From contig CAZGTU010000012.1 of the NCBI GenBank assembly GCA_964528675.1, forward strand, positions 6,477 to 70,476: DNA of 64,000 nt, given 5' to 3'. This DNA is from an uncultured Bacteroidaceae bacterium. Lineage in GTDB: Bacteria > Bacteroidota > Bacteroidia > Bacteroidales > GCA-2748055. The translations under genes were made by a program, and so were the position numbers. The notes under the pieces were generated by a model that was not told the DNA's origin, made no database searches, and saw only the letters and a program-made list of their open reading frames with translations. Shown piece by piece: positions 17,382-52,223 of this stretch (positions are counted from its first letter, which is position 1; the number at the start of each line of letters is the position of its first letter).

Positions 17382-18791
17382 ATGAAGAAAATACCCGTCT
17401 TTTTGTTTGTCCTTTTAGTATATTCTTATATTTCATTAAATGCTCAACAATACGAAATTAAAATAAATATTCCGGATTATTCCGGAAAAAGAGCTTACCT
17501 GGCATTGCTTCAGGGTGATGAGAGTGTTCTTGTGGACTCAACTGTGGTGAGCAACGGAAAGATTGAATTTTTATTTGATAAAGAAAAAGCTCTGGGATTA
17601 TACCGGCTTTTTCTTTCCGATCCTGCCCTTTCTCAAATGCAACGGAGAGAACCTGTTCATTTCGATTTTATTTTCAATCGGGAAAACATTGAATTAATGA
17701 GCAGTTACTCATCACTTCTTAAGGATATGGTAGTATTCAGATCCAGGGAAAACAAAAAATATTTTGACTTTTTAAGACTTAAATCTGATTACCGTCGCCA
17801 TTTAAGTCTCTTACTCCCTTTGACTGAAGTCTATGATAGCACAGACAGTTTCTTTTCCTCTCTCAGGAGGGAATTACTGAATGTACAACTGGATTATAAT
17901 GATTCTCTCGTGAAATTGGCAAATACAGATCCCCATATGCTCGTTTCTTCATTAATTGCTTTAAATAGAGAACCTGTTTTTGATCCCGGGAAACACGAGA
18001 ATCTGACAGGTTTTATGAGAGAAAATTATCTTGCCACTGTGAGTTTTACAGATGAGAGGCTTCTTAATACAAATGCAATCACTCAAAAGGTCATTTCATA
18101 TTTAAGTTTTTATCGTGGACAAGAAATGAACAGGCAGGAACAGGAAAAAGCTTTTATTCAGGCTGTTGATAAGATCATGGAAGAGGTGAGTTATAACCAG
18201 GAAATCTATGATTTTGTTCTTGATTATCTCATCGATGGATTTGAACAATTTCAGATGGAAGAAGTGCTGGTCCATATTGCGGATAATCATCTAACCGGGG
18301 AATGTAAAACAGAAAGTGAAGAAATTGCAAAAGAAAGACTGGAAGCCTACCAGAAAATGGCTCCGGGAAAAAAGGTCCCTGATATTAATCTTCTCGATCC
18401 TTTCGATACCCCTCATCGTTTATCTTCCCTTGAAAATGAAATGATCCTTTTAATTTTCTGGTCATCAGAATGTCCCCACTGCACCAATCTTTTACCGCGT
18501 CTTAATAAATGGTATAATAAAGAGAAGGAAAACTATGATCTGGGTATTTATACCGTATCGATTGATGATAGCAGAATTGATTGGGAGGAATTCGTCCTGA
18601 TGAATGAACTGGATTGGATCAATGTTTATGATCCGGAAGGATGGGAAAGCACCACCTCTCAAAGGTATAATATTTATGCAACTCCTACCATGTTACTATT
18701 GAACAAGGATCTGAAGATTATAGCTAAACCTATAACCTTCAGAGATGTGAAGCAGGCTATTGAAGATGAGACTCGAATCGTGAATAATTAA
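17382..18791 (+). CDS. TlpA/redoxin-family thiol-disulfide oxidoreductase with a long N-terminal domain
   Basis: Signal peptide and a C-terminal thioredoxin fold with a CxxC motif (WSSECPHCTNLLP) and YNIYATPT. Confidence 0.75.
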   Translation: MKKIPVFLFVLLVYSYISLNAQQYEIKINIPDYSGKRAYLALLQGDESVLVDSTVVSNGKIEFLFDKEKALGLYRLFLSDPALSQMQRREPVHFDFIFNRENIELMSSYSSLLKDMVVFRSRENKKYFDFLRLKSDYRRHLSLLLPLTEVYDSTDSFFSSLRRELLNVQLDYNDSLVKLANTDPHMLVSSLIALNREPVFDPGKHENLTGFMRENYLATVSFTDERLLNTNAITQKVISYLSFYRGQEMNRQEQEKAFIQAVDKIMEEVSYNQEIYDFVLDYLIDGFEQFQMEEVLVHIADNHLTGECKTESEEIAKERLEAYQKMAPGKKVPDINLLDPFDTPHRLSSLENEMILLIFWSSECPHCTNLLPRLNKWYNKEKENYDLGIYTVSIDDSRIDWEEFVLMNELDWINVYDPEGWESTTSQRYNIYATPTMLLLNKDLKIIAKPITFRDVKQAIEDETRIVNN

Positions 18792-18840: not shown

Positions 18841-19044
18841 TCAAGTGTTATTTTCTTTTTCGCCCAGAACCTGAAGCATTAAAGGATAAGCCTGATGCAT
18901 GGTGTTTTTAACAACATTGAATACCAGTCTTCGGTAATGATGTAAACGGTTTTCAATCACTCCGGGTATATTTTGGTTTACACCCGTGCGACAATATTCT
19001 CCAAGCTGATTTTGAGCTTTAGCCGTGGGTTTTTGAAGATTCAT
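18841..19044 (-). CDS. DUF2063 (MbnC/BufC/HvfC-like) N-terminal fragment, 67 aa
   Basis: RLHHYRRLVFNVVKNTMHQAYPLMLQVLGE matches the R..YRNN....AL...YP....LG block at the N-terminus of DUF2063 proteins. The ORF stops immediately afterwards, and only 49 nt remain before the convergent neighbouring gene. It overlaps the MNIO gene by 26 nt. Confidence 0.55.
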   Translation of the reverse strand: MNLQKPTAKAQNQLGEYCRTGVNQNIPGVIENRLHHYRRLVFNVVKNTMHQAYPLMLQVLGEKENNT

Positions 19045-19864
19045 GATATACCTCCCAATGACTTTTTGTTATTTGTCTAAGCTTTGATAATTCGGCATTC
19101 AGGGCATCCATCTCATTGAAATTGTAATCTCTCTCCAGTAAAACCGGAACCGGTTTCATTTTGCTCACGGTCCATTCAAATAACTCATAAACCGGATCGA
19201 TAATTGGTTGTCCATGGGTGTCAATAATGAGATCAGGTTCTACCTGCTCATGGCCGGCCATATGAATATAGGCAACCTTATCCAGGGGTAATTGAGATAT
19301 GAAATGGTAAGGATCATACTTGTGATTAAATCCATTGACATAAACATTATTTACATCAAGGAGTAGTTGACAATCGGCTTCTTTTACGATTTCTTTTATA
19401 AAATCCAATTCACTCATCTCTGCAGCAACAGGTGTGTAATACGATACGATTTCAATTGCAATATTCCTTTCAAGTATTTCCTGTGCCTGCCTTATTCTGC
19501 CAGCCACATGATAGACCGCATCTTCTCTGAAAGGTATTGGAAGAAGATCATACATGTGCGCGTTCTGACTTTTTGTATAACTCAGATGTTCAGAAAAGAT
19601 CTGTACATCGTATTTAATGAGGAATTTTTTCAATTCATCCAGAAAATCCATGTCTAGCTCATCCGGACTGCCCAGAGACATGGAAAGTCCGTGACAGGTG
19701 ACCGGGTATTTTTCCGATGCTCTCTCAAGGATCTTTTTCCAGTAGCCTCCGATCCCCATCCAATTTTCCGGGGCGAATTCGATAAAATCCGGATTTAGTT
19801 TGTCCGAATCTAACAAGGTATCTGCGATATCTCTTCTAAAACCTATTCCTGTTGATGTTTTCAT
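19019..19864 (-). CDS. DUF692 / MNIO (multinuclear non-heme iron oxidative) RiPP maturase, MbnB/BufB/HvfB-like
   Basis: MKTSTGIGFRRDIADTLL...PDFIEFAPENWMGIGG...CHGLSMSLGS...FSEHLSY...HMAGH...LERDYNF is the typical DUF692 TIM-barrel pattern. ATG 19864 is preferred over the GTG at 19888 used by the track. Confidence 0.88.
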   Translation of the reverse strand: MKTSTGIGFRRDIADTLLDSDKLNPDFIEFAPENWMGIGGYWKKILERASEKYPVTCHGLSMSLGSPDELDMDFLDELKKFLIKYDVQIFSEHLSYTKSQNAHMYDLLPIPFREDAVYHVAGRIRQAQEILERNIAIEIVSYYTPVAAEMSELDFIKEIVKEADCQLLLDVNNVYVNGFNHKYDPYHFISQLPLDKVAYIHMAGHEQVEPDLIIDTHGQPIIDPVYELFEWTVSKMKPVPVLLERDYNFNEMDALNAELSKLRQITKSHWEVYHESSKTHG

Positions 19865-19880
19865 GATTTTTTGTTTTAAA

Positions 19881-19961
19881 GAATTCACGTTGGGTTCCCA
19901 GTCTTAACATACACCCAATGACATTCAAACTTCTCATCGACCGGTATCCGAACGTGAATTC
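19881..19961 (-). promoter_or_regulatory. intercistronic stem-loop between the precursor gene and the MNIO gene
   Basis: Perfect 11-bp inverted repeat: GAATTCACGTT at 19881-19891 and AACGTGAATTC at 19951-19961. The 59-nt loop contains a smaller TTGGGT/ACCCAA stem. Confidence 0.45.
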
Positions 19962-19982
19962 TAAGATTTCATACTGCCTTTT

Positions 19983-20393
19983 TTAACCGCATTTTCCTTC
20001 GCCGCATTTTGCTTCGGGTGTTTTTCCTTCAGCTTCTTTGGATTTCTTTTTTCCTTCTTTTTTAGCGGATTCGGCCTTTTTAGCATCTGACTTTTTGTCT
20101 TCAGCTTTTTTTTCCTCAGTTTTTTTCGCTTCTTTTTTCTTTTTTTCATTTTCTTCTTCTGACTTTCCTTCTCCACACTTTCCTTCTCCGAATTTATAGT
20201 TATTCTCATTATGGAGAATATCCGGCGCATTGAGATTCATAATTTCACTTCTGACTTCAGCTCCTGAGCCCATGGCAGAATAATCAGGTATTTCTGCCTT
20301 TGTCTCATTAGCTGCAAAGCTTGTGAGAGAAGAAGTAAGAATAGCTCCTGTTAATAATGAAGCGGACATAAGGATGTTTTTCTCTTTTTTCAT
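19983..20393 (-). CDS. secreted Cys-motif RiPP precursor, HvfA/bufferin-like metallophore candidate
   Basis: 136 aa with a Sec signal peptide (MKKEKNILMSASLLTGAILTSSLTSFA). There are only three Cys (73, 130, 135), all in (E)GKCG contexts: GEGKCGEGK and a C-terminal AKCGEGKCG. A K/E-rich spacer of about 50 aa separates them. The gene lies directly upstream of the DUF692 gene. Confidence 0.72.
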   Translation of the reverse strand: MKKEKNILMSASLLTGAILTSSLTSFAANETKAEIPDYSAMGSGAEVRSEIMNLNAPDILHNENNYKFGEGKCGEGKSEEENEKKKKEAKKTEEKKAEDKKSDAKKAESAKKEGKKKSKEAEGKTPEAKCGEGKCG

Positions 20394-20468
20394 AACAAAT
20401 TAATTTTAAATTTTGTATTGGATTCATTTTATTAGTCGATAGCAAAATGATTTCCTTACAGAATTTAA

Positions 20469-20556
20469 AAAAAATCTTCCTGTTCCGCCCAGGCGGATAC
20501 AGGGTAAAAAACAGGAAGATTTTTTAATGTGTCAAAGTAGATCTAATTAGTGTCTG
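20469..20556. repeat. hairpin module related to the 14435 family; functions as a terminator on the minus strand
   Basis: 15-bp perfect stem AAAAAATCTTCCTGT (20469-20483) / ACAGGAAGATTTTTT (20511-20525) encloses TCCGCC-CA-GGCGGA. On the minus strand the stem is followed by a T-run. CTAATTAGTGTCTG at 20543-20556 is identical to 14434-14447. Confidence 0.55.
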
Positions 20557-20595
20557 AAAAAAGTGTTGAAGATCCCGGTAATAAATGTTATAGGA

Positions 20596-20889
20596 TTATT
20601 TGAGTTCTTTGAGGACACGGGTTTTAATTCTTTTCTTCTCACTGGAGTTTAGATGATGATGTTTTCCTGCTTCAAGATGTTTTTGAAAATATTCGTCCAG
20701 TATTCTGATATCTCTGGCATAGCGTAAACAATATTTACAGCTAAGCAAATGAATACGCAAATTCATCCTTTCTTTAAAATTCAGTTTATTGTCTCTTGAT
20801 TTAGAAGCAAGGTAGGTGGCTTCATCGCATGCAATCATCATCCTGGCAAGCTTTGCCATCATTTTATTTCTGAGAGAATTATTATTCAC
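20596..20889 (-). CDS. putative zinc-binding (ZAS-type) anti-sigma factor, cytoplasmic
   Basis: 97 aa with the HxxxCxxC motif (IHLLSCKYCL), no transmembrane segment, and a His run (GKHHHL). Located immediately downstream of the ECF sigma gene. Confidence 0.55.
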   Translation of the reverse strand: MNNNSLRNKMMAKLARMMIACDEATYLASKSRDNKLNFKERMNLRIHLLSCKYCLRYARDIRILDEYFQKHLEAGKHHHLNSSEKKRIKTRVLKELK

Positions 20890-20935
20890 GATATTATATA
20901 TTTCTATTAATTCAATGCGTCTTTTAGGTCTGTAA

Positions 20936-21586
20936 TTATTTCTCCATCCATTTTTTTTCCAGGCATTGCCGAATTTTCAAACGGGCTCTATGCAGTAATA
21001 CCCACAAATTTGACGATGTAATTTCTAATTCCTTACAGATTTCCTCGCTTTCACATTCCTCTATGATTTTCAAAGTAAAGGCAGCTGCCCATTTCTGTGG
21101 AAGAAAAGAAATGCATAATTCCAGTATTTTCTGAAACTCATCTCTTTCGATCATTTCTTCAATATTAAAGCCGGATTTTCCCGGAGCTGCATCTTTTTTC
21201 CAATGTCCCTTAAAAGGTCCTTCCTGCTGAAATGGTAAATTTTCACCTCCCACTTCCCAGTTCTTATCAATGATCATTTTTTCTCTCGAAGTACCGGCTT
21301 TACGATAATGATCAATTATTTTATTTTTCAGGATTGAAGTCAGCCATGTTTTTTCCTTGCTCTCACCTTTAAATTTTTCTTTTGACTTGAGGGCGGACAG
21401 AAAAGTTTCCTGAACCAGATCTTCGGAAAGTTCTCTTTGAAATACTCTGCTCATAGCGTAACTGAAGAGATAATCCCCATATTTCTCTGTCCAGAGGGAA
21501 GGATCGGATATATTACCTGGTTTTTTCACAGTCATTTCAGAAGGCAATATAGATTTTTGAAATGAAAATAACAATTTTGTATACAT
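20936..21586 (-). CDS. ECF-type sigma-70 family RNA polymerase sigma factor
   Basis: Region 2 (DLVQETFLSAL...) and region 4 (ICKELEITSSNLWVLLHRARLKIRQCL) are recognisable. The real start is probably ATG 21535 (MTVKKPG...). Confidence 0.88.
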   Translation of the reverse strand: MYTKLLFSFQKSILPSEMTVKKPGNISDPSLWTEKYGDYLFSYAMSRVFQRELSEDLVQETFLSALKSKEKFKGESKEKTWLTSILKNKIIDHYRKAGTSREKMIIDKNWEVGGENLPFQQEGPFKGHWKKDAAPGKSGFNIEEMIERDEFQKILELCISFLPQKWAAAFTLKIIEECESEEICKELEITSSNLWVLLHRARLKIRQCLEKKWMEK

Positions 21587-21748: not shown

Positions 21749-22183
21749 ATGAATAAAATATTTTTTATTTTGATTTCAGTATTATCCACTTTCTCAGCTA
21801 GTGCTCAGGGGCATTCTGATTTAAGGGTTGAGATTGAAGGGCTTAGAAATCAAGAAGGTAAAATCAGCATTACTCTTTTCAACAGTCCCGAAGGATTCCC
21901 TGAGGATATAGACAAGGCGTATAAATGGAAAACGCAGGATTTAAATGAAGAGAAGCCGGTATTCACTTTTGAGGGTCTTCCAGCAGGTGAGTACGCTTAT
22001 GCAATTCTGCATGATGAAGATGGTGATGGGGAAATGAAAAAGAATCTGCTTGGAATTCCCAGGGAAGGATTTGGTTTTTCAAATAATTACAAACCCAGAA
22101 TAAAAAACCCATCGTTTCAGGACGCTTCATTTTCTCTAAGCGGTGGATCCGAAACACACCAGATTGAAATCATATATTTTTAA
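21749..22183 (+). CDS. DUF2141 domain-containing secreted protein
   Basis: 144 aa with a signal peptide. The pattern L.VEIEGLRN.EGKI.I.LFNS...FP...GEYAYA.LHDEDGDGEM..N.LGIPREGFGFSNN is typical of DUF2141. Confidence 0.78.
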   Translation: MNKIFFILISVLSTFSASAQGHSDLRVEIEGLRNQEGKISITLFNSPEGFPEDIDKAYKWKTQDLNEEKPVFTFEGLPAGEYAYAILHDEDGDGEMKKNLLGIPREGFGFSNNYKPRIKNPSFQDASFSLSGGSETHQIEIIYF

Positions 22184-23205: not shown

Positions 23206-23772
23206 CTATCCATCCTTTGTTTGCTGCTTATAATAATCTTCGAAGGTCATCTCTTCATATATTTCCTCTGCCAGAAAGGTCAAAATAATGGCTAAATCTT
23301 CTGCAGATTTATATCCGGGAAGGGGTTGGATCATATTCATTTCTTCGTCAAGGAAAACAAGACTTGGATATGAAGGACGATTGTTAAGCAAGGCCATCGA
23401 AAGTTGATGAACACCCCTGGGGCCATTTTCAATATACTTGAATTCCTGTCCTTTGAAGTTCACCGTTTCTTTTGATTCCCCATTGAAACTTACCGGTATG
23501 AATTCTTCATTCAGAAGCTGAATGACTTTCTCATCCTGGAAAGTTGTATTTTTCAAGCGTGTACACCAACCACACCAGTCTGTATAAACATAAACAAAAT
23601 ACTTTTTATCTGAGTTCTTAAGATCAATTGCCTCTTCGAACGACATCCATTGGATTTCAGTATTTTTCTCTCTTTCAGGAGATTCATTTTCCATGTTTTC
23701 AGGTCCTGCTGAAAAAGACAGCATCAAAAAAGCCGAAAGAAATACAATACCTGGATATTTAATTGTTTTCAT
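23206..23772 (-). CDS. thioredoxin-fold protein (DUF255-like), secreted
   Basis: Signal peptide MKTIKYPGIVFLSAFLMLSFS and CxxC motif (DWCGWCTRL). ATG 23772 is preferred over the track start at 23904. Confidence 0.72.
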   Translation of the reverse strand: MKTIKYPGIVFLSAFLMLSFSAGPENMENESPEREKNTEIQWMSFEEAIDLKNSDKKYFVYVYTDWCGWCTRLKNTTFQDEKVIQLLNEEFIPVSFNGESKETVNFKGQEFKYIENGPRGVHQLSMALLNNRPSYPSLVFLDEEMNMIQPLPGYKSAEDLAIILTFLAEEIYEEMTFEDYYKQQTKDG

Positions 23773-24075
23773 ATTTACTTTTGTTTTTATTTTACAAATA
23801 TATAAAAATATAGATAAATAAATATAAAGATTCATGAATAAATAATTCCTGGAAAAGAAAATACATTTCATTAGCACAGGGCATAGTGTTGTGTATTTGA
23901 GCAATATGATGAACCCTTTTTTTTTTGTTTAACTATCAACGTTTTTAATTACATTTTTAACTACGTTGATAGTGGCAGAAATTGCTTCCGCGATATCCGG
24001 TATGTACTCGTGGAAAGCTTCACGGATGGAGTGCGGAGGGGCATGACTTATTTGTCAGTGAACTTTTTTTTTAAA

Positions 24076-49667: not shown

Positions 49668-49762
49668 TCAACCTCTCTAAGGGGGTGCCCCAAAAAAACG
49701 GGCTGAGATCATACCCTTAGAACCTGATCCGGGTAATTCCGGCGAAGGGAAATTTGGAGAAA
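49668..49762 (+). promoter_or_regulatory. TPP (THI-box) riboswitch
   Basis: CTAAGGGGGTGCCC...GGGCTGAGA..ATACCCTTAGAACCTGATCCGGGTAATTCCGGCGAAGGGAA contains the conserved GGGGUGC, CUGAGA, ACCUGAUC.GG.UAAU.CC.GCG.AGGGA elements in the correct order. Confidence 0.85.
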
Positions 49763-49796
49763 TCAATTGAAACACTCTTTTTTAAATCTTATTAGT

Positions 49797-52223
49797 ATGT
49801 ACAAGACATTCATTATGTCTGTGATATCATTATTTATGGTATTGCAGATAAACGGACAGTATGAATTCAGTGGAAAAGTTACCGATGAAAAAGGAAATGC
49901 CCTGATAGGAGCGAATATCTCATTTAAGGAAAATTATCTGGGGACTATTACCGATGAATCCGGAAATTTTATTTTTAAAAGTATTAAGGAGGGTAATTAT
50001 GAAATAAAAGTTTCATATATAGGATATGAAACCAGCACCAGATCAATTAAAATTGAGGAAGATCTTTATATGACCTTTACCCTGGAAAGATCTCCTTATC
50101 TTGTTGAGGAAGTTATTGTTAGAGGTGTCAGGGCAGGTCAGGACGATCCGGTTACAACAACTACAATTGATCGTGAGGAAATAGAAGAGAGAAATATCAT
50201 TAAAGATATTCCTTATGTATTAAAGTACAGTCCTTCTCTTGTGGCAAGTTCTGATGCCGGTCATGGTGTGGGATACACCGGTTTTCGTATCCGGGGGACT
50301 GATGCTAACAGGATCAATATTACCGTAGACGGAGTACCTCTCAACGATGCAGAATCCCATGGAGTGTGGTGGGTGAATATGCCTGATTTTGCATCTTCGG
50401 TGGAGAATGTTCAAATCCAACGCGGAGTTGGAACTTCAACAAATGGTTCGGCAGCTTTTGGTGCCAGCTTAAATTTTAAGACAACCAATCTAAAGAATAA
50501 ACCTTTTGCCTGGCTAAACAGTTCTTACGGAAGTTTTAACACCCGTAAGAATTCATTAAATGTGGGTTCGGGAATGATCAATGACAGATTCTCTTTTGAT
50601 CTAAGGTTATCTGAGGTTCATAGTGACGGATATATTGACAGGGCAGAAGCCGATCTTCAATCACTGTTTTTATCTGCAGGTCATTATTCTGATAAGACCA
50701 TCATTAAATTTAACCTTATGATGGGAAAGGAAAAGACCTACCAGGCATGGGACGGGGTTCCGGGTTACATATTGAGTGAAAACAGGAGATATAATGGAAT
50801 CGGCATGTATACCGATGAGAATGGAGAGATACATTATTATGACAACGAAACAGATAATTACCAACAGAATCATTACCACCTTCATTTTTCTCATGAACTT
50901 ACACCTGATCTCTGGTTTAACTCTACGATTCATTACACAAAGGGTGCAGGATATTACGAGCAATATAAGGAAGAGGAATCACTGGATGAGTATTTGTTGC
51001 CGGATATTATAATCGGAGACAGTATAATTTCCAATACAGATCTGATAAGACAAAAATGGCTGGACAATGATTATTACGGGATTGTGTTTTCTCTGAACAT
51101 GAATAAAGAAAAATTGGATCTTAATTTTGGAGGAGGAGCTAATCAATACATTGGCGATCATTTTGGAGAGGTTATTTGGGCACGTTACGCAGGGATTTCT
51201 GAAATAGGGCACAAATGGTATGAGAATACCGGAGATAAATTTGACTATAATTTATATACCAAGCTCAATTACCGGATATTTGATCAATTTCGGCTTTATT
51301 CTGATTTCCAGCTTAGAGGAATAAATTATCGTATTGAAGGCATAGATGATGATCAACGGAATATCACGCAGAATCATGATTTTCTGTTTTTCAATCCTAA
51401 AGTCGGACTCAATTATCGTCCGGATAATAAACAAAGAATGTATTTTTCTTTCGCGGTAGCCAACAGAGAGCCAAACCGTACTAATTTTGTTGATGCAGAC
51501 CCCAACAGACCGGGTCCCGTTCACGAAACTTTATATAATTACGAACTGGGATACGACCTTCAATTGCAGAATCTCAGGTCAAATATTAATGTTTACTATA
51601 TGAGGTATGATGATCAGTTGGTTTTAACAGGTGAAATTAATGATGTTGGTTCAGCTATTATGACAAATGTTGAGGACAGTTATCGTCTTGGTGTTGAGTT
51701 ATCCGGGGGAATCAGGTTGAATAGGGCTTTACAATGGGAAGGGAACCTTACTTTAAGCCGGAACAGGATTAAAGATATGGTAAGTTATGTGGATAACTGG
51801 GACTACTGGTATGATGAAACAGGCAATGAAGAGATTCAGATCCGTGAAGAACATGGAAATACCGATATTGCTTTTTCTCCGGATATTATAGCTTCTAGTA
51901 TATTTAGATTCAATCTCCTGAAGGATATGGAAATAAGCCTACAGTCTAAATATGTCGGCAAGCAATATATCGATAATACAGAATCGGAGAATAGAAAACT
52001 GGATCCATATTTTGTGAATGACCTTCTGATAGATTACAATATTCCTGTAAAATGGTCTGAAGAGCTCAGTGTAAATTTGCTTATTGCCAACTTCACGGAT
52101 CATGAATATGAATCCAATGCCTGGATTTACCGCTATTATGAAGGAGGCAAAGAACAGGTAATGGATGGATTTTATCCGCAGGCAGGGATACATTTTATGG
52201 CCGGTATAAAACTTGGATTCTGA
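49797..52223 (+). CDS. TonB-dependent receptor with carboxypeptidase-regulatory-like N-terminal domain (thiamine-related by riboswitch context)
   Basis: CarbopepD_reg-like start (FSGKVTDEKGNALIGANI), a plug domain (PGV..RG...R..I.VDGVPLND), and a beta-barrel ending in an aromatic residue (...GIKLGF). Confidence 0.9.
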   Translation: MYKTFIMSVISLFMVLQINGQYEFSGKVTDEKGNALIGANISFKENYLGTITDESGNFIFKSIKEGNYEIKVSYIGYETSTRSIKIEEDLYMTFTLERSPYLVEEVIVRGVRAGQDDPVTTTTIDREEIEERNIIKDIPYVLKYSPSLVASSDAGHGVGYTGFRIRGTDANRINITVDGVPLNDAESHGVWWVNMPDFASSVENVQIQRGVGTSTNGSAAFGASLNFKTTNLKNKPFAWLNSSYGSFNTRKNSLNVGSGMINDRFSFDLRLSEVHSDGYIDRAEADLQSLFLSAGHYSDKTIIKFNLMMGKEKTYQAWDGVPGYILSENRRYNGIGMYTDENGEIHYYDNETDNYQQNHYHLHFSHELTPDLWFNSTIHYTKGAGYYEQYKEEESLDEYLLPDIIIGDSIISNTDLIRQKWLDNDYYGIVFSLNMNKEKLDLNFGGGANQYIGDHFGEVIWARYAGISEIGHKWYENTGDKFDYNLYTKLNYRIFDQFRLYSDFQLRGINYRIEGIDDDQRNITQNHDFLFFNPKVGLNYRPDNKQRMYFSFAVANREPNRTNFVDADPNRPGPVHETLYNYELGYDLQLQNLRSNINVYYMRYDDQLVLTGEINDVGSAIMTNVEDSYRLGVELSGGIRLNRALQWEGNLTLSRNRIKDMVSYVDNWDYWYDETGNEEIQIREEHGNTDIAFSPDIIASSIFRFNLLKDMEISLQSKYVGKQYIDNTESENRKLDPYFVNDLLIDYNIPVKWSEELSVNLLIANFTDHEYESNAWIYRYYEGGKEQVMDGFYPQAGIHFMAGIKLGF

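Follow-up and report, generated by a model that had tools for sequence, protein, structure and literature searches.

A probable recently damaged copy of the Hvf/oxazolin copper-binding peptide system beside an ECF sigma/anti-sigma pair in an uncultured Bacteroidaceae bacterium

We analyzed a 64,000-nucleotide stretch of DNA from an uncultured Bacteroidaceae bacterium (assembly GCA_964528675.1, contig CAZGTU010000012.1, positions 6,477 to 70,476; the whole stretch is hereafter called the window). Five co-oriented open reading frames (ORFs) of its minus strand encode an extracytoplasmic function (ECF) sigma factor, a zinc-associated (ZAS) anti-sigma factor, a Cys-containing precursor peptide, a multinuclear non-heme iron oxidase (MNIO, DUF692) and a fragment of an MNIO partner protein. 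The original prediction, made from the sequence of this locus, had presented it as a poorly described system. Our results indicate instead that the locus is quite probably a lineage-specific, recently damaged copy of the known Hvf/oxazolin (Buf_EGKCG, bufferin-like) periplasmic copper-binding peptide system, a family of about 2,000 members, mostly from Pseudomonadota, built around precursor, MNIO, DUF2063 and DoxX as the core (PMC12452194). For each feature that had been called unusual there is a precedent, or else decay accounts for it.

As the original prediction had described, the five genes form a minus-strand unit of ECF sigma factor, ZAS factor, precursor, MNIO and HvfC fragment, and both the coordinates and the profile searches agreed with this description. 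The MNIO gene, hvfB (19019-19864), is apparently intact. The proposed check against the DUF692 model gave a clear match of its product to PF05114 (327.3 bits for a cut-off of 25, E = 7.9e-98), and the protein also exceeded the cut-off of the HvfB equivalog NF003818 (377.1 bits vs. 360). On the BufB model it reached 271 bits, under the 310-bit cut-off. Its best match among solved structures was 3BWW, an orthologous DUF692 protein of Haemophilus somnus. Conservation across 80 relatives reaches 95% or more in 119 columns, and the window enzyme retains 117 of them; the two exceptions, L62M and V127A, are conservative, and all conserved His, Asp and Glu residues are kept. The hvfC remnant (18841-19044, 67 aa) covers positions 2-56 of the 237 positions of the HvfC model, scored 27.3 bits on PF09836 for a cut-off of 27.2, and keeps the overlap with the end of hvfB that is seen in relatives. 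Overall, the HvfB model, the HvfC fragment and the motif of the anti-sigma factor bear out the reading of the locus as an MNIO peptide system of the HvfA class with a linked ECF/ZAS pair.

Relatives of the locus were collected by a scan of species-representative genomes, from which the best 80 loci were kept; the denominators given below are the loci with enough flanking sequence. These 80 loci came only from Bacteroidales, Marinilabiliaceae, Chitinophaga, Sphingobacteriaceae, Flavobacteriales, Ignavibacteriales or Calditrichaceae, and the Bacteroidota host, which had been taken as unusual, is therefore ordinary among them. In Bacteroidota and allied phyla, the cassette has the order sigma, anti-sigma, hvfA, hvfB, hvfC and doxX, and its repetition in dozens of independent genomes excludes a chance arrangement. 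Co-oriented sigma and anti-sigma genes stand directly upstream in 53/70 informative loci. The coupling to an ECF/ZAS module, also considered unusual at the outset, is thus common here, and it has precedents in Neisseria and Haemophilus (PMC3240639, PMC7907618); in its main text, the paper on ECF reclassification does not mention DUF692, DUF2063 or DoxX contexts. HvfC counts at least 240 aa in 73/73 informative relatives and adjoins and overlaps hvfB in every relative examined, and DoxX is adjoining in 49/69. By MNIO identity, the nearest loci are L008 (98%), L002-L004 (90%), L001 (87%) and L005-L007 (76%). The operon of L001-L008 is composed of precursor, MNIO, HvfC (250-253 aa) and DoxX, and convergent thioredoxin-like and TMEM260-like genes flank both this operon and the window locus.

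The comparison with L008 located what the window has lost. By nucleotide alignment, window positions 20477-18847 correspond to L008 78-1723 and window positions 18857-17494 to L008 2732-4091, with about 1,008 bp (L008 positions ~1724-2731) missing at the junction (18847-18857). Between the two alignments there is an 11-nt overlap, an imperfect A-rich match, and the join lies within the A-rich microhomology GAAAAAGAAAATAAC; L002 and L001 yielded matching breakpoints. The missing segment holds hvfC codons ~66-250 and the whole of doxX/hvfX, and at the join hvfC codon ~65 runs into the final doxX codons, read in another frame. In agreement, a tblastn search with the HvfC of L008 matched the window only over residues 1-72, so that of hvfC, including its C-terminal part resembling a RiPP (peptide made by the ribosome and modified after translation) recognition element (RRE), only the N-terminal fragment remains beside the MNIO gene. 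The lost doxX is hvfX, as the DoxX of L008 scored 130.8 bits (cut-off 80) on NF050144, the "HvfX family Cu-binding RiPP maturation protein" model. The 64-kb window contains no further hvfC or doxX. The full-length HvfC of relatives, together with the out-of-frame, doxX-derived end of the stub, points to an accidental deletion and not to a conserved short form. The truncated partner, which had been put forward as a feature of the system, is on these alignments the apparent product of a recent, microhomology-mediated deletion of about 1 kb, absent from the relative with a 98%-identical MNIO.

The precursor carries the mark of a smaller loss. The hvfA-like gene (19983-20393, minus strand, 136 aa) precedes hvfB by 118 nt, with the same orientation. 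By inspection, the N-terminus of its product is signal-like and of Sec type, with a KKEK n-region, the hydrophobic segment ILMSASLLTGAILTSSL and an SFA|A cleavage-type site. It is followed by a YxxMGSGAEVRS box, one GEGKCG, a Lys/Glu-rich linker and a C-terminal EAKCGEGKCG, and the peptide has exactly three Cys residues, in GEGKCG, EAKCG and EGKCG. The window precursor is 93% identical to that of L008, minus one GEGKC unit, and a 15-nt in-frame loss brings the number of Cys from four to three. Judged by this alignment, it is an orthologue of the L008 precursor that apparently lost one GEGKC unit, and the low Cys number that had been read as a property of the system comes down to this loss. Taken together, the truncated partner and the few Cys residues point to decay and not to a minimal design.

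Precursors of the related loci form a coherent subfamily, with a Sec-type signal, a box, KCGEGKCG motifs, a Lys/Glu/Ala-rich linker and, usually, a C-terminal EAKCGEGKCG. By BLAST, such a precursor is found directly upstream of the MNIO gene in 61/75 relatives, and in more of them when the upstream ORF was checked for KCG. The box, Y-x-x-L-G-S-G-A-E/Q-V-R-S-x-L, is present in 66/68 precursors with its two Gly and its Arg invariant; this conserved leader-like element is a candidate HvfC recognition site. At least two complete KCGExKCG motifs were counted in 64/68 precursors of this set, which includes the window, and a single one in the window precursor; the number of Cys ranges from 3 to 9, the window being the minimum. 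Of the profile checks suggested originally, those on the enzyme and on the partner fragment were passed and the one on the precursor failed, with 17 bits on the HvfA model NF050188 (cut-off 95) and no match to NF050137 (KCGExKCG_twice). The precursors of relatives also score under the HvfA equivalog cut-off, and the six that were tested pass NF050137, an HvfA-family model.

The regulatory genes of the window are intact. The sigma factor gene (20936-21586, minus strand) encodes a protein limited to regions 2 and 4 (Sigma70_r2 and r4_2 domains) and adjoins the anti-sigma gene. Its product scored 88.5 bits on the ECF superfamily model TIGR02937 (cut-off 42.9) and remained just under the cut-off of the closest specific model, TIGR02943 (157.6 bits vs. 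162.2). It shares 42-69% identity with the same-position sigma factors of 55 related loci, and its real start is probably Met18, at about 21535, giving about 199 aa (193-206 aa in relatives). The anti-sigma gene (20596-20889, minus strand) encodes 97 aa, with a likely start at the ATG at 20862 or 20859. The protein passed NCBIfam NF052368 (57 bits, cut-off 50) and stayed below Pfam zf-HC2 (19.6 bits, cut-off 22.2). Its ligand motif, C21-X25-H47-X3-C51-X2-C54, agrees with the ZAS definition, C/H-X23-26-H-X3-C-X2-C (PMC7907618), and these four residues are invariant across 56 aligned homologues. There is no hydrophobic segment in the window protein and no transmembrane segment in any of the 56 homologues, and comparison of its sequence with solved structures returned chance matches only. 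Most anti-sigma factors of Bacteroidota and allied phyla have, beyond the ZAS site, a second C-terminal Cys/His cluster (e.g., CSHESCEHHL), which could be an extra metal- or redox-sensing site; at residues ~76-80 of the window protein (KHHHL, roughly 20650-20664), both Cys of the cluster are gone and HHH alone is left.

A promoter-like motif is shared by the regulators and the biosynthetic genes. TGTAAGG-N15-CG(T/A)C was found upstream of the precursor gene in 44/52 loci examined, starting 66-81 nt (101 nt in one locus) before the precursor start codon. A position weight matrix (PWM) built from these sites was scanned over the 64-kb window and gave exactly two matches. One is the candidate ECF-type promoter of the hvf operon (20429-20463, minus strand; TGTAAGG at 20454-20460 and CGAC at 20435-20438; PWM score 25.1), ~42 nt before the hvfA ATG. 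The other falls within the sigma gene, at its 3' end, among the codons of region 4.2 (21006-21040, minus strand; TGTAAGG at 21031-21037 and CGTC at 21012-21015; PWM score 23.0). About 9 loci without an adjoining sigma gene still keep the motif upstream of hvfA, which implies that the sigma factor must be encoded elsewhere in those genomes. No autoregulatory promoter upstream of the sigma gene was detected by the PWM scan; a GAAC...TCTGT similarity first seen there by eye was dropped, as it was not conserved.

The internal site holds a fixed position in 54/55 related sigma genes, 64-76 nt before the stop codon (L010-L088), and its codon usage is strongly biased. Its Cys codon is TGT in 56/56 genes and its Lys codon AAG in 55/55, compared with 41-55% TGT at two other conserved Cys and 26-59% AAG at two other conserved Lys used as control columns. 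The third position of the codon that provides the "CG" of the -10 element is G without exception; this codon is NCG in 52/56 genes, for a background of 16%, and the amino acid that it encodes varies between Ser, Pro, Ala and Thr. Judged by this bias, the internal motif is not a mere by-product of the conserved peptide ICKELxIxxSN, its codon choice appearing to be more fixed than the encoded protein requires. Probably, it acts as a sigma-dependent promoter from which only the anti-sigma gene is transcribed. That such a promoter in region-4.2 codons constitutes a functional, self-limiting circuit conserved in Bacteroidota and allied phyla seems to us somewhat more plausible than the contrary.

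Between the anti-sigma gene and the hvfA promoter, a strong, terminator-like hairpin with a U-run was found (20469-20525, minus strand), with a folding energy of -25.1 kcal/mol, a z-score of -5.08 and none of 200 shuffles folding as well. Its stem of 18 bp is flanked by an A-run and a U-run. The hairpin falls within ~100 nt missing in most relatives, the intergenic gap being 202 nt here vs. 64-116 nt. A generic sigma-70 promoter/terminator scan gave nothing decisive; it missed this long-loop hairpin, which was then folded separately. An Rfam scan detected no RNA family in or near the locus. In L060, a Sphingobacteriaceae metagenome-assembled genome, doxX lies ~600 nt from hvfC with its own TGTAAGG-N15-CGAC 59 nt upstream (L060 3945-3979), which fits doxX as a direct target of the same sigma factor. 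A conserved sequence that also scored with the PWM, CCCTGGAAGG...CACATCAAACTC, was observed just downstream of doxX in L017 (7254-7288), L035 (3256-3290) and L055 (7245-7279); this could belong to the coding region of the following gene.

In the intact cassette, as modelled from the relatives and from Haemophilus and Neisseria, the small cytoplasmic zinc-binding anti-sigma factor would hold the ECF sigma factor until oxidative or thiol-reactive stress frees it. The free sigma factor would then transcribe hvfA-hvfB-hvfC-doxX from the TGTAAGG-N15-CG(T/A)C promoter and, from the internal promoter, the anti-sigma gene alone, which would provide a self-limiting negative feedback. HvfB and HvfC would turn the Cys residues of the KCG motifs of HvfA into 5-thiooxazoles in the cytoplasm, with an expected mass shift of -4 Da per Cys and absorbance near 302 nm, and the modified peptide would be exported by the Sec pathway and bind Cu(I). 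This chemistry follows work on HvfA. In H. influenzae, the six Cys of HvfA are modified by HvfB only with HvfC, HvfB alone leaving HvfA unmodified (PMC11252979). According to a preprint (bioRxiv 10.64898/2026.07.17.739211), the modification is a 5-thiooxazole, HvfC is needed for the active mixed-valent diiron state and the HvfB-HvfC interaction is weak; on that account, the oxazolone/thioamide pair expected in the original prediction is out of date. The window retains the sigma and anti-sigma genes, both promoter copies, the precursor (minus one Cys motif) and the MNIO gene. The window peptide is likely unmodified because HvfB is inactive without HvfC, and on this analysis the window copy is probably an inactive, early-stage pseudo-operon whose peptide would be made and left unmodified.

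Several considerations weigh against a damaged, inactive copy. The MNIO gene is without clear decay (15 nucleotide differences with L008, pN/pS, the ratio of nonsynonymous to synonymous differences, of 0.22), and selection may still be acting on it, unless the deletion is very recent; relaxed selection on the gene was also considered, and 15 substitutions are too few to tell. An assembly error behind the deletion is formally possible, as the junction lacks an independent copy, and a second hvfC or doxX beyond the visible 64 kb could complement the loss. The modification, the copper binding, the inducing signal and the activity of the promoters are all inferences, and the window sigma factor is a putative counterpart of Neisseria SigE and Haemophilus RpoE2. 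Three other explanations of the locus were considered. A functional, naturally minimal MNIO system, in which the 67-aa HvfC stub or no partner at all suffices for a 3-Cys precursor, would be a new variant controlled by envelope stress, close to the original prediction, and would agree with the 117/119 conserved columns, with the overlap of the stub and the hvfB end, preserved as in relatives, and with the intact regulators and promoter copies. We give it very little credence, since HvfC is full-length in all 73 informative relatives, including the one with a 98%-identical MNIO, since the last residues of the stub are doxX sequence read out of frame at a junction with microhomology, and since HvfB activity requires HvfC (PMC11252979, bioRxiv 10.64898/2026.07.17.739211).

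Complementation in trans, by an HvfC paralogue and a DoxX from another part of the genome, could also keep the system working. Only 64 kb of the genome are visible, genomes with several MNIO, DUF2063 and DoxX genes have been reported (PMC12452194 and its supplementary table), and the ~9 related loci that keep the promoter motif, with the sigma gene evidently elsewhere, indicate that trans arrangements of the regulator occur. We nevertheless consider this unlikely, given the absence of a second hvfC or doxX from the window, the adjoining and overlapping partner of every relative examined, which suggests translational coupling, and the weak HvfB-HvfC interaction reported in the preprint (bioRxiv 10.64898/2026.07.17.739211), which argues for co-expression. 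If the deletion were an assembly artefact, the real genome would have an intact hvfC-doxX segment. The window is probably metagenome-assembled, its exact MNIO protein is without a database record, and metagenome scans with the junction 29-mer and a flanking 22-mer shared with L008 both gave no match, so that there was no independent contig with the deletion allele. The divergence from L008 is moreover uneven, with 98.2% nucleotide identity over hvfB (15/846 positions differ), ~90% over the hvfC stub and 91% over the thioredoxin-like gene, which suggests recombination between strains or a mosaic assembly and hints at mixed strains. Against an artefact, the match between the flanks of the junction is A-rich, imperfect and no longer than ~11 nt, far under assembler k-mer sizes, no repeat able to collapse 1 kb is present, and L002-L004 show a different, independent erosion at the same end of the operon, as expected from real decay in the clade; an artefact thus appears very unlikely. 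A recently damaged copy of the Hvf/oxazolin system therefore remains our preferred explanation of the locus.

Other losses were observed in the nearest lineages. In the sister lineage L002-L004, doxX is cut to 85 aa (L002 7603-7860), independently of the window deletion, and the sigma/anti-sigma module is lost at the same position in the nearest sister lineages (L001/L009 and L002-L004). The L008 contig stops just upstream of the precursor, before any regulator genes. On these comparisons, parts of the cassette, including the distal end of the operon, appear to be eroding independently in this Bacteroidales clade.

As a decaying copy of a characterised peptide-metallophore system, the window locus itself is a poor candidate for new chemistry. 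The survey extends the Hvf/oxazolin cassette, described mainly from Pseudomonadota, to a widespread occurrence in Bacteroidota, Ignavibacteriales and Calditrichaceae, where its six genes keep a fixed arrangement. The candidate promoter TGTAAGG-N15-CG(T/A)C can be used to predict the regulon in these phyla, and it helps to test whether hypochlorite, copper or thiol stress is the inducing signal of thiooxazole metallophores. The natural deletion of hvfC and hvfX, compared with an otherwise 98%-identical intact allele, offers a ready comparison for complementation. If a minimal system were nonetheless at work here, the RRE-like domain of HvfC and HvfX would be dispensable, and the locus would be a natural minimal HvfB system. 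The self-limiting circuit with an internal promoter is a weaker but likelier new element than this minimal system, and a Corynebacterium precedent exists for it.

Envelope genes of redox type flank the locus: a 469-aa thioredoxin/AhpC-TSA-like gene (17382-18791, plus strand), a DUF2141 gene (21749-22183, plus strand) and a thioredoxin-like gene (23206-23904, minus strand), the last read as DsbH-like by synteny with L001 only. The DUF2141 and thioredoxin-like neighbours were considered as members of the system; they are syntenic in the closest relatives only and have no promoter motif, and they are probably not part of it. A TPP riboswitch (RF00059, 68.4 bits; 49671-49769, plus strand), directly upstream of an 818-aa ORF (49767-52223), is unrelated.

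Among known systems, the locus resembles hvfABCX of Haemophilus in several respects. The window MNIO passes the HvfB equivalog and has the H. somnus orthologue 3BWW as best structure match; the precursor combines a Sec signal with KCGEGKCG; the relatives have an HvfC partner and an HvfX-family DoxX; and the ECF sigma factor is controlled by a small cytoplasmic anti-sigma factor of ZAS type (PMC7907618, PMC11252979). In H. influenzae, the hvf/doxX operon is RpoE2-dependent and induced by hypochlorite, and RpoE2 is held by HrsE, a 67-aa cytoplasmic ZAS factor (PMC7907618). In contrast, the regulators are unlinked in Haemophilus and adjoining here, and the precursors of Bacteroidota and allied phyla have a YxxLGSGAEVRSxL box and a long Lys/Glu/Ala-rich linker where that of Haemophilus has a disulfide-containing N region. 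The window copy further differs by the lack of most of hvfC and all of hvfX.

The physical linkage of an ECF sigma factor and a ZAS anti-sigma factor to a co-regulated hvf/doxX operon is shared with Neisseria. The sigmaE operon of N. meningitidis, itself sigmaE-dependent, contains doxX, three hypothetical genes (read here as hvfABC), sigE and mseR, and the deletion of mseR up-regulates the whole operon (PMC3240639). The regulators come last there and first here, where the regulators seem to be transcribed separately from the biosynthetic genes, with a copy of the motif for each of the two units. Bufferins of Caulobacter and other Pseudomonadota (BufA-BufB-BufC-DoxX with SigF/NrsF) have in common with the locus an MNIO with a DUF2063 partner and a Sec-exported copper-binding peptide whose Cys residues are converted to thiooxazole, often encoded beside an ECF sigma factor (PMC11626156, PMC12452194). 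Their precursors, however, contain DUF2282 or 6/12-Cys domains instead of KCG repeats, and their anti-sigma factor is the membrane protein NrsF and not a soluble ZAS protein. The candidate internal promoter has its closest counterpart in sigH-rshA of C. glutamicum, in which a SigH-dependent promoter within the sigH coding region drives the ZAS gene rshA alone, as a proposed shut-off of the response (PMC3489674). That system differs in ECF group, phylum, regulon and consensus (GGAA...GTT), and its promoter was mapped experimentally, whereas the internal promoter of the window type is proposed from conservation and codon bias.

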